Source: a virus
Length of the DNA stretch: 52,233 nt
Strand: one strand, 5' to 3'
Virus record (IMG/VR): IMGVR_UViG_3300010231_000010
Span: 1 to 52,233 of that record
Under the pieces are notes generated by a model, which had not been told where the DNA came from, searched no databases, and saw only the letters and a list, made by a program, of their open reading frames with translations. Made by a program: the position numbers and the translations under genes. Of the stretch, positions 737 through 42,396 are shown piece by piece (position 1 is the first letter of the stretch; each line of letters opens with the position of its first letter).

Positions 737-1566
737 TGGTCGAGCGCCAATTCCGCGTAGTCACCCATAAGCGGTGGCTCGCTGAGTTGTTCCAGCCAAT
801 GGGCGCAGTGATCGATCATGGCTTCGACATCGACCCCACGACGGCACTGGACACGATCTGGTGGGCACCCGGCGCATGGGTCGCCAGCGCGCACCTGTCC
901 GGCATTCAACTGCCGCTTCTGAGTTGCGGACCGGATTGGCTGGTGCACCTGCCCCAGCGGTACAGCGGTCGCCGCGTGGAGAACAAGGTGCTCGCTGACA
1001 TCACGCCCGGGAAGCTGGAGCCGACGTTCGCCAAACTTCCCGAGGTCAAGCACGACGGCGTTCCTGCGCGGGCCTACGGTGAGTGCTACCTGCGCGACAC
1101 ACTGGCTCAATACAACCTCCCTGCCGAGACGGTGTGGCAGTTACAGGAGCCGGTCGACTTCCGCATCGAAGCGCGCTTCTGGATTGCACACCGCAAGATC
1201 GTCGCCGAGAGTCCATACCGGATCGGCACCATGATCTGGGGTTACAACGGCTTCGAGCGCGCGGGACAGCGGCTCATCAAATCCCGCACCTACGCCACGA
1301 TGCGAGACTTTATCCAGACCGTGCTGACCGATGACGGCGTGGATATCGCGCCGGGTTGCACCATCGACGTTGGCATGACGACCGACGGACCCCTAATCGT
1401 CGAGGCCAATGCCGCCTGGTCATCTGGACCGTATGACGGCGACCCTGCCGGTATTCACGCGGCAATCGTCGCCAGCCACGACTTCGAGGGGCGCTACCCG
1501 CAGTGGACGTGGCGGCACAGTCCGGTGTTCGACAAGGCTCGACCGCTGCACCTGACCGCCGCCTGA
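736..1566 (+). CDS. ATP-grasp fold protein (R2K/DUF4343-like amidoligase candidate)
   Basis: ATP-grasp motifs occur in the expected order: FAKLPEVKHDG (nucleotide-binding Lys), LQEPVDFRIEARFWI (conserved Glu/Arg) and DVGMTTDGPLIVEANAAW (Mg-binding E-x-N). ATG 736 is preferred over the upstream start at 688. Confidence 0.7.
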   Translation: MVERQFRVVTHKRWLAELFQPMGAVIDHGFDIDPTTALDTIWWAPGAWVASAHLSGIQLPLLSCGPDWLVHLPQRYSGRRVENKVLADITPGKLEPTFAKLPEVKHDGVPARAYGECYLRDTLAQYNLPAETVWQLQEPVDFRIEARFWIAHRKIVAESPYRIGTMIWGYNGFERAGQRLIKSRTYATMRDFIQTVLTDDGVDIAPGCTIDVGMTTDGPLIVEANAAWSSGPYDGDPAGIHAAIVASHDFEGRYPQWTWRHSPVFDKARPLHLTAA

Positions 1567-1647
1567 AACTCGTTGGAACCGTTCGGCCGTCGTAGCCGTC
1601 TATACCTGTAGATCGTCCCCGGTCAACTCTCCAGGCTGGGGGCGATC

Positions 1648-1896
1648 TCAGAACGGCAATTCGTCATCCCACAGAGCAATATCCTCGGCGGTCTCGCGCT
1701 CCACTTGTTCGGCAAGTGCGATCCATGGTTTGAACGCTTCCGCGAGCCGACCCGCCGCACGCGCCATCGCTTCGGTCGCGATGGCAACTCGACCAGCCAA
1801 GTCGGCAAACCGTGCATCGAGGCAGACAACCTCGGCGCCCGCCACCACCGCAGCGCCTTCGACGATCAGCTCAGCCTCGAACACCGCGTCTTCCAT
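1648..1896 (-). CDS. Hypothetical 82-aa Ala/Glu-rich helical protein ending in an SSB-C-terminal-tip-like motif (WDDELPF)
   Basis: GC3-rich minus-strand ORF located 8 nt after the upstream gene. The opposite-strand ORF 1730..2140 is a Pro/Ser/Thr/Arg-rich artefact. The last codons, 1651-1671, encode W-D-D-E-L-P-F. Confidence 0.65.
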   Translation of the reverse strand: MEDAVFEAELIVEGAAVVAGAEVVCLDARFADLAGRVAIATEAMARAAGRLAEAFKPWIALAEQVERETAEDIALWDDELPF

Positions 1897-1904
1897 GCCT
1901 CTGA

Positions 1905-2156
1905 TTATGCGCCGATCTGCTCCCGATACACGTCCTCCGCCCGCAACCCCGGCGCCAGATTCCCCAGCAGATTCGCCACCAACTTCCGCGCACCCGCCTC
2001 CGAGTAGTCGTCAATCCGGAAGCTCGACGACTTTCCGTTCTCCACAACCGACCACGCAACAACCCACACCGGATACCCGACGACAGCGGCACCGGTGGAC
2101 TCGGTTGCGGTGCCGGTCGTCAGCGTCACCTTGGTTGTGAAGCGGGTGATACCCAT
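1905..2156 (-). CDS. Hypothetical 83-aa protein (first gene of the minus-strand pair)
   Basis: GC3-rich ORF. ATG 2156 is chosen because TACCGT (TANNNT) lies 7 nt upstream, making a leaderless start plausible, and because the longer 2228 start would run through the attP arm repeats. Confidence 0.55.
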   Translation of the reverse strand: MGITRFTTKVTLTTGTATESTGAAVVGYPVWVVAWSVVENGKSSSFRIDDYSEAGARKLVANLLGNLAPGLRAEDVYREQIGA

Positions 2157-33837: not shown

Positions 33838-36800
33838 GTGGAACCCATCCTCATGATGATCGAGCCGACGCTTGATGAGCGTGCCGCCACCTCGACGATG
33901 GCGCGGGCTCAGCGTGTGTATGAAGAGGGCGCCCGTGACATCTCGAAGGTGATGCGCCAGCAATTGACTCATGGCGCCGAGGCGGCCGGCAAGGGCTTCG
34001 ATGAGCTAGAGACCAAGGCGCGCAAGGCGTATCTGGGGATGCAGGATGCCAGCGAGAAGGTTGCGGCGGCTGAGCGTAAGCATCAGGCGGCTGTGGAAAA
34101 GGGCGCGGCCAACGCCGAGTCGTTGGGCCGCAAGGTTGAGCGGGCCCGCCTCGCTGAGATTGAGGCGATTGAGCGGGCTACGGCTGCGTACAAGGAGTAT
34201 GGGCAGGCCGCTGATCAGGCTGGCAACAAGGCTGTTGGCGGTCTGCGTGGCGCCTTGGCTGGCGCTCGTAGTGCTGGCGGGGAGATGGCGGGTGGTTTCG
34301 CTGAAGGGTTCGCTGGTTCGTCTGCGTTGATGCGTCTCGGTTCGGCCGCTGGACCCATCGGCCTTGCCATTGCGGGTACGGCGGCATTGGGCGTCATGGG
34401 TGGAAAGGTGTTGGCGGACAGCATCTTGGCCGGTATGGATCAGGCGCGGATGCGCGACCTGTTCCAGGCGCGCCTTGGCGTGGACTCCGGGGTGATGCAG
34501 AAGATTGGCGACGCGGCTGGGGCTGCGTTCGCGCAGGGTTTCGGCGGGTCCGCCGAGGAGAACCTGAAGACGATTTCTGCGGGTATCCGCGCGGGTCTGA
34601 TTGGTCCGAGGTCGTCGGATGCCGATTTGGCGAAGTTCACCGAGCGGATGGATACGACCAGCAAGATCACTGGGCTGGACACCGGCGAGATTGCGTCCAA
34701 GTCCCGCAACATCGTTCGCAACGGCCTAGCACGGGACTACGCCGAAGTGCTAGACCTACTGAACTCTGAAGCGGGCAAGCAGCTCGACATCTCTGGTGAC
34801 CTGTTGGACACCACCGAGGAGTATGCGACGGCTTGGCATGGTGTCGGGCTGTCTGCTGCCGATGCGTTCGGCTTGATGAAGCAGATGTCTGATGCAGGCA
34901 TCCGCAACACCGACGTGGCGGCGGATTCCCTCAAAGAGTTGTCGATCAACGTGGCCGACAACTCGAAGACGACGCGCGCGGCTTTCGTGGCGTTGGGATT
35001 TGATGCCGACGACATGAACCGGCGATTTGCCGAGGGTGGCGCTACTGCACGTGAGGCGTTCGGCGCGGTGCTGACCGCGATGCAGGACATGAAGGATCCG
35101 CAGGATAAGACCAACATTGGCTTGGCCCTGTTCAAGACGAAGTGGGAAGACGCCAAGACCGCCATCGAAGCCGCGAACCTGAAGACCGCGGCGACAGACA
35201 TGGGCAAGATCACCGGTTCCACTGATGATGCCACCAAGCAGCTCAACACCCATGCCGATGCGTGGGGCAACCTCGGCAACAAAATCTCGCAAATGTGGGA
35301 CCAGACCGAGCGAAAGCTTGCGAACAGTTGGCTTGGGAAGTTCGTCGGTATGACGTTACCGGACTGGCTGTCCAAATTCCTCGACTGGTCATCTCGGAAT
35401 CTGGATAACAAGCCCGCTCAGCCGCCGCAGCCAAAGGTGTACGGGCCGCCAATGCCCAGTAGTTCACGCTTCGCCCTACCTCCGGGCGCGACGCCCTCCT
35501 TGGCTCCGAATGACCTGGGCGGACTGCTTGGTGACACGCCACCTCCTCCGACGACTGCGGATTTCCGCGCTTGGTATGGGCCTGGTGTCCGGCCGCCCGA
35601 TGCCCCGCCATTGACGCACGGAGCTCAGGGGCACTACTCACCCGAGGATGCTGCCGGGTCGAAGAGTCTTCCACCCGCTCCGGTGTTGCCGTTGCAGTAC
35701 ACGAACACCGCTGGGCTGCCGGCGGGTATTGCGAACGCGCAGCAGAGCCTGGATGAGCGCAAGCATGACGTCGCCGAGAAGCAGGCGCGGGTGGCTCAGC
35801 TGGAGCAACTCAATGCCAAAGAGGATGACTTAACCAAGGCGCGCAACGACTTAACGAAGGCGCAGCAGGATCAGCTCAAGGCTGAGCAGTCGTTGACTGA
35901 TGCGCGGATCAATGCCACGAAGCAGGCGAACAAGCAACTCGCTGGCCTGTCGTCGGATATGGAGCAGTTGGGGTCGCAGCTCGACAAGGACTTCGGTATC
36001 TCCAAAGGCCTGGGTGGGATTGTCGAGAACGCGGTCAAGGCGCTCGGCAACATCGTCGCAGCTCCGTTCCTGCAGGCGCTCGGTTTCGTGGCCAAAGCCA
36101 ACCCGAACGAAGGCTCCGGCCTGATCGGTATTGCTGCCGCGAATGGTGCGTTCGGGTCTCAGTACACCCCGGGCGCGATCGCCATGATGCAGGCGTCTCA
36201 GCGGTCCGGTGGCGGCGGATATCCAGGCGGCTATGCCCCAGTGGCGGCAGCCGTAGGTGGAGGTCAGCCCTATGGACTGCCAAACGGCACCGATATTCGA
36301 CAGGGCGCCCCAGGCTTCCCTAGTTGGGTTTACCAGGTTGCCAACGCTTTCGGGTTGCAGGCGAGCACCTATGCGGGCCACCAGGAGGACAAGGGCCAGG
36401 GCAATCAGGGCATTGACTGGTGGGGCCCGGTGGAGAATCGGCAGCGGTTCGCCGAATGGCTCGCGCAGAACCGTGGCATGCCAGGGCTCGAAGACGTCAT
36501 TTTTGAGAACCCGACCACTGGTCAGGACATCGGCGTCAACAACGGTCGCCTTGTCGGAACGCCGGGTAGTGCGGACCCTGGCTACTTCCGGCGCGGGAAG
36601 AACGATTTCGCCGACCACCGGGACCACGTCCACACGACGCAGAGCCAGTCGTTCGGCCTCCCTGGCTCGCCGCAGGCAACCGATTCGATGAATAGCCTTG
36701 CAGGAGCGGCTAATTCGGCTGCCAACGCGCTGGGTGGTCTGTCCACGCAGCAGTGGAACAACATTGCGGGCGCGGAGGCTAGTGGGAACTGGGCCGCGAA

Positions 36801-37575
36801 CACCGGCAATGGCTACTCGGGTGGCCTGCAGTTCAGCCCGCAGACGTGGAATGCGTTCGGCGGTCAGGCGTTTGCGCCTCAGGCTTGGCAGGCGACACCT
36901 GAGCAGCAGATGGCGGTCGGCAACAACGTGCTCGCTGGGCAGGGTCCGGGTGCGTGGCCTGCTACGTCGGCGGCGCATCCGGAGTGGTTCCAGCCAGGGG
37001 TTGGCATCCCTGCGAGTGTGGGACCTACGGGTGGTCCGATGATGCCGGGAATGGGTCAGTCGCAGGGGCTCCCCAGCGTCGGTCTCGGCAGTGTGTATCC
37101 GTCGCAGGGTGGCAACTCGGGCAACATCCTCGGCGGTATGGCGATGGACGGCATCATGGCCGCGACGTCTGGTTTGGATGCGCTTGCCCCCGGCGCCGGT
37201 GCCGCAGCGAAGATTGGCATCCAGGTTCTGAATCGCACCGTGGGCTATGCCGCGCAGAACATGGGCATCGCGGCGAACGCAGTCGGTGAATTCCTCACTG
37301 TCGGCGACAACCCCAAGGGCAGCATCGGTGCTGGTTGGCTCGGGAAGCTGGCCGGTGGTATCGCTGGTGCCGCTCCTGCGCTGCCGAATCTGGCTGGCGG
37401 GAAGAAGCCTCCGGGGCCGATGGATCAGGCGACTGGTGGCCAGCAGCAGGGCGGCAACACCTACGGCGACACGAACATCACCGTGCAGTCGCGCGAGGGT
37501 GCGAGCGGGCAGGAGCACGGCGAGCAGATCGCGGCTGAGCAGGGACGCATGTACGCGCCGGCGGGTCGCCAGTGA
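33838..37575 (+). CDS. Tape measure protein with embedded cell-wall-hydrolase-like motifs
   Basis: 1245 aa with Ala/Gly-rich helical repeats. An Rpf/transglycosylase-like block (AGAEASGNWAANTGNGYSGGLQFSPQTWNAFGG) lies at about 36748-36975. An upstream His/Asp block ends in DHRDHVH. Confidence 0.95.
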   Translation: MEPILMMIEPTLDERAATSTMARAQRVYEEGARDISKVMRQQLTHGAEAAGKGFDELETKARKAYLGMQDASEKVAAAERKHQAAVEKGAANAESLGRKVERARLAEIEAIERATAAYKEYGQAADQAGNKAVGGLRGALAGARSAGGEMAGGFAEGFAGSSALMRLGSAAGPIGLAIAGTAALGVMGGKVLADSILAGMDQARMRDLFQARLGVDSGVMQKIGDAAGAAFAQGFGGSAEENLKTISAGIRAGLIGPRSSDADLAKFTERMDTTSKITGLDTGEIASKSRNIVRNGLARDYAEVLDLLNSEAGKQLDISGDLLDTTEEYATAWHGVGLSAADAFGLMKQMSDAGIRNTDVAADSLKELSINVADNSKTTRAAFVALGFDADDMNRRFAEGGATAREAFGAVLTAMQDMKDPQDKTNIGLALFKTKWEDAKTAIEAANLKTAATDMGKITGSTDDATKQLNTHADAWGNLGNKISQMWDQTERKLANSWLGKFVGMTLPDWLSKFLDWSSRNLDNKPAQPPQPKVYGPPMPSSSRFALPPGATPSLAPNDLGGLLGDTPPPPTTADFRAWYGPGVRPPDAPPLTHGAQGHYSPEDAAGSKSLPPAPVLPLQYTNTAGLPAGIANAQQSLDERKHDVAEKQARVAQLEQLNAKEDDLTKARNDLTKAQQDQLKAEQSLTDARINATKQANKQLAGLSSDMEQLGSQLDKDFGISKGLGGIVENAVKALGNIVAAPFLQALGFVAKANPNEGSGLIGIAAANGAFGSQYTPGAIAMMQASQRSGGGGYPGGYAPVAAAVGGGQPYGLPNGTDIRQGAPGFPSWVYQVANAFGLQASTYAGHQEDKGQGNQGIDWWGPVENRQRFAEWLAQNRGMPGLEDVIFENPTTGQDIGVNNGRLVGTPGSADPGYFRRGKNDFADHRDHVHTTQSQSFGLPGSPQATDSMNSLAGAANSAANALGGLSTQQWNNIAGAEASGNWAANTGNGYSGGLQFSPQTWNAFGGQAFAPQAWQATPEQQMAVGNNVLAGQGPGAWPATSAAHPEWFQPGVGIPASVGPTGGPMMPGMGQSQGLPSVGLGSVYPSQGGNSGNILGGMAMDGIMAATSGLDALAPGAGAAAKIGIQVLNRTVGYAAQNMGIAANAVGEFLTVGDNPKGSIGAGWLGKLAGGIAGAAPALPNLAGGKKPPGPMDQATGGQQQGGNTYGDTNITVQSREGASGQEHGEQIAAEQGRMYAPAGRQ

Positions 37576-39299
37576 CCGCGCCCGCGCCGAAGCGCTACCC
37601 GGCCAACAGAATCCTGCCGCACGGGGCCTACCACTTTCTCAAGGGCACGGGCCCGAATGTCCGGCTGACGTCGTTTGACGGCACGGTCATCTTCGACATC
37701 ATGGGCGGCGGTTCAATCGCCGACAAGTACCTCTCGCCTGAATGCGCCATCCTCAACGAGGCACCGAAAGGTGTTGGCGGGGCATGGAAAGCCGTTGTTC
37801 AGCAGGGCGCGAACGAGGACGGTGAGACGTTCCTGTTCGCGGTGAATGAGGCGATGGAAACGACTCTGCCTCTGCTGTTGGTTGGTCGTGATGCGGCGCA
37901 TGTGGCGCAGGTGCGGCAGGCTCTGGTGAGTTCAGTCGATAAGACGAAGCTTGCCCGGTTGCGCTGGTGGACGCAGAAACTCGGCTACTGGTGGGGCGAT
38001 GTCCGCCACGCCCGCCCGTCTGTCGGTGGCTACGACATCGGGAAGCGCCGCTCGGTCAAGTACGACCTGCATCTGAAGGTTGATGGTGGCTCGTGGCGGA
38101 CGTTCGATCATGTCGATGAGTTCCGGCTGCCGTACGACTCGATGAAGGACTCCTTCGATGTGGATTACGTCGAGGACAAGAACATGGGCCCGAACTGGCC
38201 GCTGTACTTCACTGGTCCGGGTGGTGGTTATCCGTACACGTTGCGTGGTGCGATGCGGTGGCGTGATGATCCGTCGCGGACGTTCTTCACTGAGCCGCGT
38301 TCGTTCGTCGCCGGCCCGTTCAAGGACTTCTCGACGGCGTCGGATAACCAGGTCATCAGCATCGTGTTCGACTCCATTCAGGAGTGGGGCGCGTCGAATG
38401 ACATCTGGGGGCGCAAAGGGCGCGGTCCGACGGGCCAGTGGAACGGCTATGGCGTCCGGGCGCGCATCACCGGTCCGTGGATTGAAGTCGCGGCGTACAA
38501 CAACTTCCACAAGACGATCATCGCGCAGGGTTTCGCGTCGATCCCGATTCCCCCAGGGATTGGTGATCGGTACCGGTTGGAGTGCGGCGGCCTGGATAAG
38601 GACGGCAACTTCAACCCGCGCATCTTCCGGGTTCGTCGTGGTGGGGCAACGATTTTCACCGCGAAGGATAAGGCAGGGGTTTCGGCGCTGGGTGCGTCGT
38701 TCCGTGGCGTCGGGACTGGCGGCCAGGCTGCGGGCGCGCTCGTCACACAGGGGACTCCGGCGTCGATCCGCGAGGTATCGGCCGGCGACCTCACGAACGC
38801 CGCGCCTACCGGGTACCTGACCCGCATCAACGTGGGCGATCAGGACATGTGGGACCGCTACACGATCTACGGGCCTGGGACGTTCGAGATCGCTTCCGGG
38901 CCTGGCGCTAAGCAGACGGTGAAGATCGGTCCGCTGCTACCGAATCAGGTGGTTCAGTTGCGCACGGATGGGACGAAGCGGCGCATCATCGACCTGACTT
39001 CTGTGCCGCCGACCGCCGCTGAGCTGCTGGAGTACAAGAAGGCTCTGGCCGAGTTGGATTCGTACGCGCCGATCAAGAACATCGGGCCCACGCGCCAGTC
39101 GAACGCCAGTGAGTTCGGTGTCGTTCCGCCGCAAGGGAATCTGCATCGGATCATCGATGGTTGGTTCACGCATCCGATTCCGCCGATGTCTGCTGATGGC
39201 ACGGTGAAGGAGTATCGCGTGGCGTGCAAGATCACGGGCGGTAATCCGGATTCGCGGATCATCGCTGCGGGAACACCATTGAGGAAGCTACCCGCCTAG
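37572..39299 (+). CDS. Minor tail protein (distal-tail-protein position)
   Basis: GTGA overlap with the tape measure stop; 575 aa. Confidence 0.8.
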   Translation: MTAPAPKRYPANRILPHGAYHFLKGTGPNVRLTSFDGTVIFDIMGGGSIADKYLSPECAILNEAPKGVGGAWKAVVQQGANEDGETFLFAVNEAMETTLPLLLVGRDAAHVAQVRQALVSSVDKTKLARLRWWTQKLGYWWGDVRHARPSVGGYDIGKRRSVKYDLHLKVDGGSWRTFDHVDEFRLPYDSMKDSFDVDYVEDKNMGPNWPLYFTGPGGGYPYTLRGAMRWRDDPSRTFFTEPRSFVAGPFKDFSTASDNQVISIVFDSIQEWGASNDIWGRKGRGPTGQWNGYGVRARITGPWIEVAAYNNFHKTIIAQGFASIPIPPGIGDRYRLECGGLDKDGNFNPRIFRVRRGGATIFTAKDKAGVSALGASFRGVGTGGQAAGALVTQGTPASIREVSAGDLTNAAPTGYLTRINVGDQDMWDRYTIYGPGTFEIASGPGAKQTVKIGPLLPNQVVQLRTDGTKRRIIDLTSVPPTAAELLEYKKALAELDSYAPIKNIGPTRQSNASEFGVVPPQGNLHRIIDGWFTHPIPPMSADGTVKEYRVACKITGGNPDSRIIAAGTPLRKLPA

Positions 39300-39355: not shown

Positions 39356-41521
39356 ATGAAGCTGACCGACGCTGAGGTCGAGCGGTGGAAGCGTGACCTG
39401 GACTCGGGTGATAAGTGGCGTGAGGCCGAAGCGGCTGAGGTGTTGTCGCAGTCGTTCTCGGCCGATGACACCGACCACATCATCACCGCGTGCGACTACC
39501 TGTGGCGCGAGATCGACCGCATCGGCGACTTCATCGAACTGACGTACACGATCCCGAGAAACCTTGCCCCACAAGCGACGTTGACGTTGAAGGGCGATCA
39601 CCATCTGGTACCGCTGTTCCGGACGTGCACGCAGACGATGGTCGGTATCACCATCGAGACAGCGGGTATCTCGGAGGCGTTCTACGTCAAGCGGCACCGG
39701 GAAAAGCTGGGCCCGGACGGTGTGTGGACGCACGTGCTGGAGCTCGTCGGCATCTACGACATCCTGAACTACCTGGTCATCTGGCCGTCGTGGTACCTGC
39801 CGATCCAGTCGCAGCCGTTCTCGCACGCGATCTACGCGGCGCCGATCTGCACGGCGATCGAGTCGATGGCGGCGGAACAGTCGTTGCGTATCCAGTCGGG
39901 CATGTGGGAGTTCGTCAACAACTTCCTGTCGGGCAACCCGGATGTGCGGTCCTACTTCGGCACTGTCCTGCAGGGATTGAAGCGTGATGGTAAGCCGTCG
40001 ACGATCCTGAAAACGCCTCTCTACGTTGTCCGTACGGGCCTACTGCGGGATAGCTCGCAGGTTTACGTGAAGACCGTCCGGATGCAGACGGTCGGCCAGA
40101 TCATCACGGAGATCACCGCAGCCTACGGTGTGGACGTTCGGGTGCATCTGTGGCGGCCGGGTGACCCGCAGCCGGACCAGTGGGCGAACCTCGAGGTACC
40201 CACATATGTGATGACGGTTCGGGACCGCACGCAGATCGAGGGCCCGACGAAGAGCATCCTGGATTCGGCGCTGCGTCTGGTTGTCGATGTGCAGGGTTCG
40301 CTGTTGGGCAATACGCTTTCGCCGCTGCTGAATCCGGATGGCAAGTACGCGCCTGAGGGTCTGTATATCGCGCCGCGGCTGGGCATCAATTTCGTGATGC
40401 CGTACGCAATGATCGTCACGCCGGACAACGTGATCACCGAGGACGGGGACGTTGTTCGGGAGCGGTCGCCGCTGGTGTCGTGCGAGATCGCGCACAACAC
40501 ACCCCTTGGGTGGCAACACATTATCGGCGGCAAGTGCGTCGCCGGTGAGACATTGGCGCACACAGCCGAGGGTCTCATACCGGTCAAAGAGCTTGTGGGC
40601 CGCACGATTCTGACCCTGTCTGCCGACGGTGTTTACCGGCCAGCGGAATGGAAGACCTACGGGGAGCAGCAGCTCTACAAGGTCGTGTTCGACAACGGCG
40701 ACCACATCTTCGCCACGGACACGCACGAGTGGGTAGCGATCGGCCGCAACAAGCGGATCACGACGGTCGAGCTTGTGGGCGAGCGCATTCCGCGCGTTGC
40801 ACACGCAGGCCGGTATGGACAGCTGGACTACCTCGCGGCAGAGGGTACGTCGGCCGTTGTCGTGAGGGTTGAGGAAACCGACCGGTACGAGACGGTGTAC
40901 TGCTGCGAGGAACCGGTCACCAACACCTGGGTGGCAGGCGACGGATACCTCACCTCGAACTCGCCGAAGTGGCTCAATGACCTGATCAACGCGTTCTTTG
41001 CCTACGTTATCGATGTTGCGATGATCGTCATCGGATTTACCGGTGTCCCAAGCAATCTGCTCGACGGCTTCATGAACGACAGCTTCTTGGCGTTCCAGTT
41101 GATCGAGCACTACACGCGGCGCAACAGTGTCGGTCCTTACCACCCGGCGATCGAGGTGTTCACCTCCACGAACAGCGCCCCGTACAACGTCGAGGCTCTG
41201 TTCCAGTTCATCCAAGTGCTTTGGAATAGCAGGGGTTACACGACGGCGATCGCGACATTCCGTGGTCAGAACGGCCCGTACAAGCTGGGTCGCGACATCT
41301 TCCCGGGCGCGCTGATGATCCTGGTGTACGCGTCGCGGACGAAGCTCTACACCGACTACATCGAGTTGGTCAGCGGCAAGGTCAACCGGAATACGCGTGA
41401 GTTGACGGTGCAGATGGGTGATGGGAAGCCGTTGGAGCATCCGATTGCGCAGTTGCGTCGAAACATGAGCGAAGCAATGGCAGCCGTGAACGTCGTATCG
41501 CTGGCGCCCAATAGTGGTTAA
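39356..41521 (+). CDS. Minor tail protein (tail-tip position) interrupted by a mini-intein
   Basis: 721-aa ORF. Residues 394-535 form a Hint domain, and the two exteins together total 579 aa. Confidence 0.8.
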   Translation: MKLTDAEVERWKRDLDSGDKWREAEAAEVLSQSFSADDTDHIITACDYLWREIDRIGDFIELTYTIPRNLAPQATLTLKGDHHLVPLFRTCTQTMVGITIETAGISEAFYVKRHREKLGPDGVWTHVLELVGIYDILNYLVIWPSWYLPIQSQPFSHAIYAAPICTAIESMAAEQSLRIQSGMWEFVNNFLSGNPDVRSYFGTVLQGLKRDGKPSTILKTPLYVVRTGLLRDSSQVYVKTVRMQTVGQIITEITAAYGVDVRVHLWRPGDPQPDQWANLEVPTYVMTVRDRTQIEGPTKSILDSALRLVVDVQGSLLGNTLSPLLNPDGKYAPEGLYIAPRLGINFVMPYAMIVTPDNVITEDGDVVRERSPLVSCEIAHNTPLGWQHIIGGKCVAGETLAHTAEGLIPVKELVGRTILTLSADGVYRPAEWKTYGEQQLYKVVFDNGDHIFATDTHEWVAIGRNKRITTVELVGERIPRVAHAGRYGQLDYLAAEGTSAVVVRVEETDRYETVYCCEEPVTNTWVAGDGYLTSNSPKWLNDLINAFFAYVIDVAMIVIGFTGVPSNLLDGFMNDSFLAFQLIEHYTRRNSVGPYHPAIEVFTSTNSAPYNVEALFQFIQVLWNSRGYTTAIATFRGQNGPYKLGRDIFPGALMILVYASRTKLYTDYIELVSGKVNRNTRELTVQMGDGKPLEHPIAQLRRNMSEAMAAVNVVSLAPNSG
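40535..40960 (+). mobile_element. Mini-intein (142 aa, no endonuclease domain)
   Basis: Cys1 in CVAGETLAHTAEG (block A), ATDTHEW (block B, TxxH), VYCCEEPVTNTWVAG (block F), GYLTSN followed by Ser+1 (block G). Confidence 0.75.
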
Positions 41522-41535
41522 TCCGAGGAGGTTTC

Positions 41536-42396
41536 GTGGCTGAGATTCTGTGGCGCACCGAATACCGCGATGGTGTGCGGTGGCTGTTCTGCAATCTCGC
41601 CGAGTTGGGTTTCCGGCTCGATGACGATGGCCAGGCGTCGGGGATGTTCCTTGCTGTTGCTGCCCCGCTTGGTGGCATCGCGTCGCTGGGGAACATTCTC
41701 GCAAAGGGCGATCAGGGTTTCTCGCCGTCGATCGAGATGGGCAGTTTCGTCGAGCTCGATGCTGACGATGTGACCCCGGCGTCGGTGTCGCTGAATCTGC
41801 TCGCTGAAGCGACGGATGTGTCGGGTCCGGTGTACAGCCTGGACGTGGTACTGCATCGCGGGGCGACGGGCGAGGCGGGCACTGTGGTGTTCAACCCGGG
41901 GGCCATCTCTGAGGACCCGCAGCTTGGTTGGATTCCCGCCGTGGCCGCTGGCCTCGAAGAGTTCGAGCTTGTGCCGCAGCGGGTTCCGACGATGCATTGG
42001 CCCGCGACCGTGACGGACGTACCCACGGGGACAACAGCCGGATTCACGCTGACCACTGTCCCGATCGCTGCCGTTCCGTACGACCGCTACGTGATCCCCA
42101 CTGGCGAGGTGCAGGTGGTCGCTGCATCGGGAACGAACCTGCGGGTTGACCTGGTCGCGCACCTGGACGATGAGACGGGCACGAAGATCGTGGGCCGGTC
42201 GTTCGGTGTTGCGGGCGCGAAAGACAAGCTGTCGCTGATCGGTTACCCGCCGGCCGGTACCACGTCGAGTGCGACGAAGATTCTGGCGAACAACCCGGCG
42301 AACGTGTACTTCCGCACTGAGAAGCAGGCTGGTTCGTCGGCGTACTCGTCGGTGGCTGGTACCGCTCTGTTTGGTTGCATGACGGTGCCCGCATGA
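41536..42396 (+). CDS. Minor tail protein
   Basis: GTG 41536 follows GAGGAGG; 286 aa. Confidence 0.75.
   Translation: MAEILWRTEYRDGVRWLFCNLAELGFRLDDDGQASGMFLAVAAPLGGIASLGNILAKGDQGFSPSIEMGSFVELDADDVTPASVSLNLLAEATDVSGPVYSLDVVLHRGATGEAGTVVFNPGAISEDPQLGWIPAVAAGLEEFELVPQRVPTMHWPATVTDVPTGTTAGFTLTTVPIAAVPYDRYVIPTGEVQVVAASGTNLRVDLVAHLDDETGTKIVGRSFGVAGAKDKLSLIGYPPAGTTSSATKILANNPANVYFRTEKQAGSSAYSSVAGTALFGCMTVPA

Follow-up and report, generated by a model that had tools for sequence, protein, structure and literature searches.

How does a self-splicing protein element come to lie in a structural component of a virus tail? Inteins are found overwhelmingly in nucleic-acid and nucleotide enzymes, and the question is raised by a gene for a 721-aa 'minor tail protein' in the IMG/VR virus record IMGVR_UViG_3300010231_000010, of which the whole stretch analysed, 52,233 nucleotides long, is here called the window. 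An earlier note, made from the sequence alone, had proposed that 142 residues of this protein form a complete Hint/intein domain inside a virion tail-tip protein. By its sequence relatives, its predicted HINT fold and its exact presence or absence among homologues, which together go far beyond chance, the segment is a genuine mini-intein. Very probably it is a self-splicing mini-intein without homing endonuclease, residing in the trimeric baseplate hub gene of a temperate mycobacteriophage or prophage.

The most direct evidence comes from homologues that do without the segment. Megablast returned a single close relative, Mycobacterium phage Maddy2, whose nucleotide match lies in two pieces spanning 1740 nt, that is, 2166 minus 426. 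The Maddy2 homologue is a protein of 579 aa with a 97% identical extein (97.5% for the N-extein against Maddy2 residues 1-393, 96% for the C-extein), in which residues 394-535 are exactly missing and HIIGGK is joined to SPKWLNDL. Excision had been predicted to leave a 579-aa extein joined as ...HIIGGK/SPKWLNDL, and this is exactly what the intein-less homologues encode: Maddy2 and 10 other aligned homologues of roughly 579 aa are each without exactly residues 394-535, so that relatives are without exactly these 142 codons and the segment is not a retained part of the fold.

Intein-free alleles are the rule. About 115 of the 120 best homologues in a large protein collection are roughly 579 aa long, and four (P0001, P0021, P0116 and P0117; 721-732 aa) carry an insertion. 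All four share with the window one insertion site, GG[KR]/SPKW in the alignment, and extein identity between the intein-bearing lineages is only 48-64%. A second close pair is formed by P0021 and the intein-free P0089, a prophage protein of Mycolicibacterium austroafricanum; their exteins are 97% identical and they differ by little beyond the insertion. A single intein-bearing allele was found among 249 pattern matches in IMG/VR, belonging to the P0021 lineage and identical to P0021 in its intein sequence, while none was found among 65 pattern matches in GTDB representative genomes or among 103 in JGI metagenomes, though hub genes are present in both. Two further hub alleles, P0110 and P0118, are frameshifted and diverge right after SPKWL, five codons beyond the insertion site; P0063 is frameshifted too, diverging about 35 codons further on. 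These frameshifts may reflect errors in sequencing, decay into pseudogenes or marks left where an intein was lost imprecisely.

Homology of the segment itself leads to inteins. An exhaustive phmmer search of the 142 residues against 1.84 billion representative proteins gave 532 matches at E<=1e-3, of which 126 reach E<=1e-10; the tail allele P0117 scored best (E 3.5e-47), and matches outside tail proteins share 30-60% identity with E down to 1e-38. With only the intein as query, a word-indexed homology search gave no matches. For the 150 best of the 532 matches plus the four tail alleles, hosts were clustered with the intein regions masked, which left 149 distinct non-tail proteins. Ribonucleotide reductases account for 105 of these best 150, followed by CHAP or 'phage tail lysozyme' proteins (11), Toprim proteins (10), RecA (4), P22-like portal proteins (3) and DnaB helicases (3); the singletons include AAA_24, a glycosyltransferase and a family B polymerase. 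Most relatives match in two stretches with a LAGLIDADG_3 domain between the splicing halves and are therefore full-size inteins; 15 of the best 150 are mini-inteins of 126-153 aa. The absence of a homing endonuclease claimed by the earlier note holds, the intein measuring 142 aa in total and a Pfam profile scan having found no LAGLIDADG or HNH domain in it.

The residues that matter for splicing are nearly invariant in this family. Among the 150 best matches, Cys1 occurs in all 146 relatives alignable there; in the non-tail relatives Thr B:7 occurs in 147/149, His B:10 in 149/149, Trp B:12 in 146/149, Cys F:4 in 139/140, Thr G:5 in 127/135 and Asn G:7 in 103/103, with Cys+1 in 98 of 103. An AlphaFold2 model of the intein, built from an alignment with 19 mini-intein relatives, reached a predicted local distance difference test score (pLDDT) of 97.5 and a predicted template-modelling score of 0.90. 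All 50 best Foldseek matches in the PDB are intein, Hedgehog Hint or bacterial intein-like (BIL) domains, at template-modelling (TM) scores of 0.65-0.80; TM is 0.70-0.80 to the NpuDnaE, NpuDnaB, Mtu RecA and gp41-1 inteins and to the class 3 Mch and Msm DnaB inteins. The homologues, the fold model and blocks A, B, F and G thus agree with the complete domain that had been proposed, and the motifs quoted in its favour (CVAGETLAHTAEG, IFATDTHEWV, ETVYCCEEPVTNTWVAG and GYLTSN/S) are all present where they had been placed (Table 1).

Table 1. Coordinates in the window of the precursor gene, its exteins, the intein and its sequence blocks (a slash marks the splice junction)
Feature	Position	Strand	Remarks
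Precursor gene, baseplate hub (Tal-like, Sipho_Gp37 family) 'minor tail protein'	39356..41521	+	721 aa including the intein; from the open reading frame list
N-extein	39356..40534	+	Residues 1-393, end ...GWQHIIGGK; phrog_20512 positions 3-383
Mini-intein, 142 aa	40535..40960	+	Cys394..Asn535; 426 nt in frame; predicted HINT splicing domain
Block A, CVAGETLAHTAEG	40535..40573	+	TIGR01445 intein_Nterm match begins exactly at residue 394
Block B, GDHIFATDTHEWVA	40697..40738	+	Contains the IFATDTHEWV motif; aligned to His65/Trp67 of MchDnaB1
Block F, TVYCCEEPVTNTWVAG	40892..40939	+	F:4 aligned to Cys124 of MchDnaB1
Block G, DGYLTSN/S	40940..40963	+	Read directly from the sequence
C-extein, opening SPKWLNDLINAF...	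40961..41521	+	Residues 536-721 plus stop codon; phrog_18875 match

Within these blocks, Cys394 (TGC, 40535-40537) is intein residue 1 and holds the N-terminal nucleophile position; Thr454 (B:7), His457 (B:10) and Trp459 (B:12) lie at 40715-40717, 40724-40726 and 40730-40732, and Cys516 (F:4) at 40901-40903. Asn523 occupies F:13, which is His in most relatives. Thr533 is G:5, Ser534 is the penultimate residue G:6, and Asn535 (G:7; AAC, 40958-40960) is followed by Ser536 (+1; TCG, 40961-40963). Cys517 (F:5, 40904-40906) stands right after the F:4 Cys (VYCC); most relatives likewise have Cys at F:5, and the rest have Ala, Val or Gly there. A vicinal Cys pair beside Cys1 in the active site suggests a possible redox or metal sensitivity.

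The tail-tip host proposed in the earlier note can be named more closely. The open reading frame (ORF) matches the PHROG minor tail families phrog_20512 and phrog_110 (E ~1e-131 to 1e-134). When the intein was removed in silico, the Pfam Sipho_Gp37 match rose from 21.5 bits (profile positions 12-205) to 26.5 bits (12-370; cut-off 26.2), and two PHROG stretches merged into one continuous phrog_110 match through the junction. Genes for the large terminase (23209), the portal (24947), the major head protein (27371) and the major tail protein (31651) come first. The tape measure gene (33838-37575), with a transglycosylase motif, is next, and after that for a distal-tail-like minor tail protein (37572-39299) follow the hub gene and more minor tail proteins. 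These surroundings are a standard siphovirus morphogenesis module. The N-terminal part of a low-confidence full-length model matched, by Foldseek, chain 9d93_Oa of the Bxb1 tail tip (E 3e-13) and chain 8zdo_s of the Douge baseplate (E 8e-13), and further VgrG spikes, contractile-injection-system hubs and Mu gp44 (1wru). Sequence identity of the hub to the Bxb1 and Douge structures is only 13-18%, and a search of PDB sequences with the extein-family profile found nothing. In the lower baseplate of Douge, the C-terminal end of the tape measure lies together with a trimeric hub protein and the central fibre (PMC13033339). Gene order, the Sipho_Gp37 match, the fold-level matches and the composition of the Douge baseplate together identify the extein, at the level of profiles and models, as a baseplate hub (Tal-like, Sipho_Gp37) protein.

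Two side features of the gene deserve a remark. Two residues past the junction, residues 538-561 (40967-41038) form a strongly hydrophobic, highly conserved predicted helix, KWLNDLINAFFAYVIDVAMIVIGF, followed by TGV, which could be a buried or membrane-active hub segment. On the opposite strand, an antisense ORF of 554 aa (40040-41704, -) covers the greater part of the hub gene, intein included; GC-rich DNA often contains antisense ORFs of great length.

How the intein has evolved in this gene can be read from its five tail-protein copies, which are 60-94% identical to one another and 60-77% across lineages. All five conserve Cys1, Thr B:7, His B:10, Trp B:12, Cys F:4, Thr G:5, Asn G:7 and Ser+1. 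By the Nei-Gojobori method, the ratio of nonsynonymous to synonymous substitution rates (dN/dS) of the intein is 0.078 between the window and P0001 (dS 0.37) and 0.12-0.24 in distant pairs, for which saturation of dS makes the ratios approximate; it is never above that of the flanking extein. With dN/dS at 0.08-0.24 the protein sequence has therefore been maintained, and the intein is under purifying selection, which supports splicing indirectly. GC content and GC at third codon positions (GC3) of the intein match those of the extein, and the pairwise distances of intein and extein group alike (window with P0001, then P0021, then P0116 with P0117) at similar dS. A recent foreign origin of the intein was rejected on the matching GC and GC3, the shared distance grouping and the similar dS. 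The pattern fits a long residence of the intein in the hub gene with repeated loss or replacement by intein-free alleles.

The position of the insertion is equally telling. Among 564 16-residue windows of the spliced extein ranked by conservation, those spanning the junction take ranks 1-4 and 6, so no 16-residue stretch of the extein is better conserved than the one that the intein splits; this is where inteins classically insert. No second intein of the same family was found within the 52,233-nt window, and the ORF list shows no endonuclease gene flanking the hub gene there. The contig that carries allele P0021 (L003 and L004) has a free-standing HNH endonuclease gene at 1348-2100 (-), about 8 kb upstream of its hub gene.

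The window as a whole is a mosaic relative of the temperate phage Maddy2, matching many other mycobacteriophages as well, and is itself absent from the phage collection searched; only 16-28% of it aligns to Maddy2, at ~85% identity. Its start (1-23000) holds early, lysogeny and replication genes that match the integrase, Bet recombinase and helicase region of Maddy2, and its end (23209-52233) holds structural and lysis genes, with a lysin A match at ~49.6 kb. This gene order fits a prophage or a permuted assembly.

What would the intein do in such a protein? In the splicing that we propose, the 721-aa precursor would be translated and the intein would fold, bringing both junctions together; it would then excise, ligating Lys393 to Ser536 and giving the 579-aa hub and a free 142-aa intein. 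The predicted ligation junction reads ...IIGGK-SPKWLNDLINAFFAYVIDVAMIVIGFTGVPSNLLDGFMNDSFLAFQLIEHYTR, and its predicted tryptic form is SPK/WLNDL... with GGK before it. We infer splicing itself, the initiating cysteine and the completion of splicing before hub assembly. For the chemistry, we somewhat favour a class 1-type route via Cys394, with Cys516 in the position of the usual Asp. It would begin at Cys394, where Thr454 and His457 would assist an N-to-S acyl shift, continue with transesterification onto the hydroxyl of Ser536 and cyclisation of Asn535, and finish with an O-to-N shift; Cys516 (F:4), Trp459 (B:12) and Thr533 (G:5) would lie in the active site, replacing the usual Asp and hydrophobic residues. 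For this route speak the invariance of Cys1 (146/146 relatives) and the family profile, which lies much closer to class 1 DnaE inteins than to class 3 DnaB inteins. Cys1 would form the linear (thio)ester; the Asp usual at F:4 and the His usual at G:6 are both missing.

The penultimate Ser had led the earlier note to raise the question of splicing efficiency or conditional splicing, and as a warning sign it does not stand, non-His residues being normal at G:6 in this intein family. Among 130 alignable non-tail relatives G:6 is Gly in 102, Lys in 11, Ser in 10, Arg in 6 and His in 1. In the alignment, the Npu DnaE intein ends ...IASN/C, and it splices very fast. Because the family is almost without a penultimate His, the Ser-Asn ending is normal and no sign of impairment. 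Kelley et al. 2016 report Gly, Lys and Ser at G:6 of mycobacteriophage inteins, and a phage intein with a penultimate Gly that splices better and faster than its Gly-to-His mutant (PMC5050341). The truly unusual feature of the tail copies is that the block F His is missing as well: F:13 is His in 111 of 139 non-tail relatives, and Asn or Gln in all tail copies.

Several observations weigh against a self-splicing, class 1-type intein in a baseplate hub. The TIGR01445 score, 24.5 bits, equals the cut-off of that profile and is borderline, and Pfam Intein_splicing (PF14890) stays below threshold at 17 bits against a cut-off of 35.8. The full-length AlphaFold precursor model is poor (pLDDT 54), and the location of the intein in the hub fold is not visible in it. 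The histidines at G:6 and F:13 are usually credited with assisting Asn cyclisation, and both are absent here (G:6 Ser, F:13 Asn); this leaves no obvious general base, so that the C-terminal step could be slow or conditional, or need another helper. Finally, the intein has the full Trp-Cys-Thr (WCT) triplet, Trp459 at B:12, Cys516 at F:4 and Thr533 at G:5. This triplet defines class 3 inteins (PMC2807308, PMC3196547), and Ser+1 is a class 3 tendency (PMC5222942); both being class 3 hallmarks, they make the initiating nucleophile uncertain.

A class 3-type route is a serious alternative, if an unlikely one. Here the intein would be active, and Cys516 would attack the Lys393-Cys394 bond to form a branched thioester at block F before transfer to Ser536, with Cys394 dispensable or auxiliary. 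Besides the presence and conservation of Trp B:12, Cys F:4, Thr G:5 and Ser+1, the spacing of His64, Trp66, Cys123 and Asn142 resembles that of Bvi IcmO (65, 67, 122, 142) and Mle DnaB (65, 67, 124, 145) (PMC5222942), and the best PDB match of the C-terminal two-thirds, searched as a single sequence, is the class 3 intein MchDnaB1, with His, Trp, Cys and the C-terminal strand aligned. Class 3 inteins have been described as a monophyletic clade (Tori and Perler 2011, as cited in PMC3196547). Tori et al. 2010 left open the mechanism of three WCT inteins that start with Ser or Cys; according to later papers class 3 inteins do not require an N-terminal nucleophile. That this nucleophile is absent or dispensable, with the F:4 Cys as obligate initiator, is a class 3 mark, whereas by sequence Cys1 is present here and so constant through the family that a dispensable role would be unexpected. 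The wider family, moreover, mostly has Cys+1 (98/103), unlike class 3, and its profile matches class 1 DnaE inteins over the whole domain at E 3.7e-9 to 1e-6 and class 3 DnaB inteins only at E 0.026 and 0.5. The WCT triplet grafted on a class 1 intein was not sufficient alone for class 3 splicing (PMC7664689).

A further option is that both cysteines are used, either in a relay between Cys1 and Cys-F:4 or in a Cys1-CysF:4 disulfide that keeps the precursor inactive, so that, with both helper histidines missing in the tail copies, slow or redox-conditional splicing would gate assembly of the tail initiator. We regard this as a long shot. Splicing would then act as a checkpoint timing the tail initiator complex of tape measure, distal tail protein and hub, and, if true, this would be the first intein to regulate virion morphogenesis instead of an enzyme.

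It is also improbable that the intein is decayed or domesticated, staying in the hub as a tolerated or co-opted domain or, in the manner of BIL domains, only cleaving, which would leave a two-piece hub. Loss of both helper histidines (G:6, F:13) is compatible with such decay, as are the loss of the endonuclease, without which the element no longer homes by itself, and its rarity (1/249 in IMG/VR, 0/65 in GTDB, 0/103 in JGI); a decayed class-3-like intein pseudogene is known from a prophage remnant (PMC3196547). Yet the five copies have kept C1, T, H, W, C, T, N and S+1 despite their divergence (inteins 60-77%, exteins 48-64%), dN/dS is low, at 0.08-0.24, and an essential structural protein is unlikely to tolerate a permanent 142-aa insert in its best conserved motif. 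BIL domains are without a +1 nucleophile, mainly cleave, and occur in variable secreted proteins, whereas Ser536 is present here and the intein interrupts the best conserved motif of a structural protein that is itself conserved.

Finally, that the segment is an ordinary lineage-specific tail domain resembling intein motifs by chance, for which the subthreshold Pfam Intein_splicing score (17 vs 35.8 bits) might speak, has next to no probability and is refuted by the strong phmmer E-values to intein-bearing proteins of unrelated function, by the HINT fold (pLDDT 97.5, with the top 50 structure matches all inteins or Hint domains) and by its exact absence from 97%-identical orthologues.

A self-splicing mini-intein thus being the preferred reading, its host deserves attention. 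Kelley et al. 2016, in their census of inteins in mycobacteriophages, list 13 host-protein groups, with the portal as the sole structural one, no tail-protein host (their text nowhere uses the word 'tail'), and all hosts classed as nucleic-acid binding (PMC5050341). No report of an intein in a tail, minor tail, baseplate hub or actinophage tail protein was found in the literature, our coverage of which is incomplete, and the insertion site in the hub protein is apparently undescribed. The earlier note had called a tail-protein host unusual, and rightly so, tail proteins being absent from the census (PMC5050341) and from the other literature found. As an observation in its own right, CHAP or 'phage tail lysozyme' proteins (P0268, P0121, P0187 and 8 others) carry the same intein family. 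The P0268 intein (residues 42-175) ends where the CHAP domain (173-249) starts and has Cys at +1, and P0121 (1812 aa) holds eight matching stretches, which suggests several inteins in one protein. Given these hosts, virion-associated proteins with inteins of this family are not unique to the hub case.

The hub intein extends the host range of inteins to a purely structural tail component. Unspliced precursor is probably unable to assemble, and splicing would then have to keep pace with tail morphogenesis. The intein-containing and intein-free hubs, 97% identical, form a natural pair for study, Maddy2 being cultured, and make it possible to ask if a structural gene is burdened by its intein, regulated by it or unaffected. 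With an invariant Cys1 and the WCT triplet, and with both helper histidines missing, the intein also offers a compact 142-aa substrate for relating class 1 and class 3 chemistries. For annotation the case is a warning: a 721-aa 'minor tail protein' is read here as a 579-aa hub plus an intein.

Compared with known systems, the host is closest to the hubs of Bxb1 (9d93 chain Oa) and Douge (8zdo chain s, presumably hub gp18), which it resembles in gene order (tape measure, distal tail protein, hub), in fold matches at E ~1e-13 and in size (586-595 aa there, 579 aa spliced here); the difference is that neither these nor other annotated hubs are reported to carry an intein. The likeness to classical mini-inteins such as Mtu RecA, drawn motif by motif in the earlier note, stands for the HINT fold and fails for the diagnostic residues. 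Mtu RecA has Val B:12, Asp F:4, His F:13, His G:6 and Cys+1, whereas the hub intein has the WCT triplet, F:13 Asn, G:6 Ser and Ser+1.

The Bethlehem RDF (metallophosphoesterase) intein, whose splicing, faster than that of its Gly-to-His mutant, Kelley et al. 2016 showed by experiment (PMC5050341), shares Cys1, Cys F:4 (VWCL), Thr G:5, a non-His penultimate residue and Ser+1 (...HLTGN/S), but has Val at B:12, a LAGLIDADG endonuclease and a location in an enzyme active site. Pairwise BLASTP found no significant similarity between the two, and it therefore serves as an analogue only. The class 1 DnaE inteins (Npu, Ssp and halophilic; PDB 4kl5, 1zd7, 7qil) give the best profile matches and the best TM (0.78-0.80) and share Cys1, with a Ser-Asn end in Npu DnaE; they differ in Asp F:4, the lack of Trp B:12, Cys+1, their naturally split state and their replication-enzyme host. 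Class 3 inteins (MP-Be DnaB, Msm/Mch/Mle DnaB-1, Bvi IcmO, Dra Snf2) are alike in WCT, Ser/Thr+1, mini size, spacing, a proposed phage origin and the HINT fold (TM 0.70-0.71 to 6rix and 6bs8), but typically have no N-terminal nucleophile and keep the penultimate His (THN), where the hub intein has an invariant Cys1 and a TSN end; profile similarity to their structures is weak (E 0.026-0.5).

Its true kin, as far as sequence can place it, is a large Cys1 + WCT family almost without penultimate His, and not the classical inteins of the Mtu RecA kind. The inteins of ribonucleotide reductase, Toprim, RecA (Ser+1 site), DnaB and P22-like portal proteins (P0121-P0269; e.g. the ribonucleotide reductase of Thermobifida phage P318) are homologous in sequence and share Cys1, Thr B:7, His B:10, Trp B:12, Cys F:4, Thr G:5, a non-His G:6 and Asn G:7. 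They are mostly ~300-340 aa long with LAGLIDADG, Cys+1 and His F:13, whereas the tail copy, at 142 aa, is a mini-intein that has Ser+1, carries Asn or Gln at F:13 and sits in a structural, non-enzymatic host.

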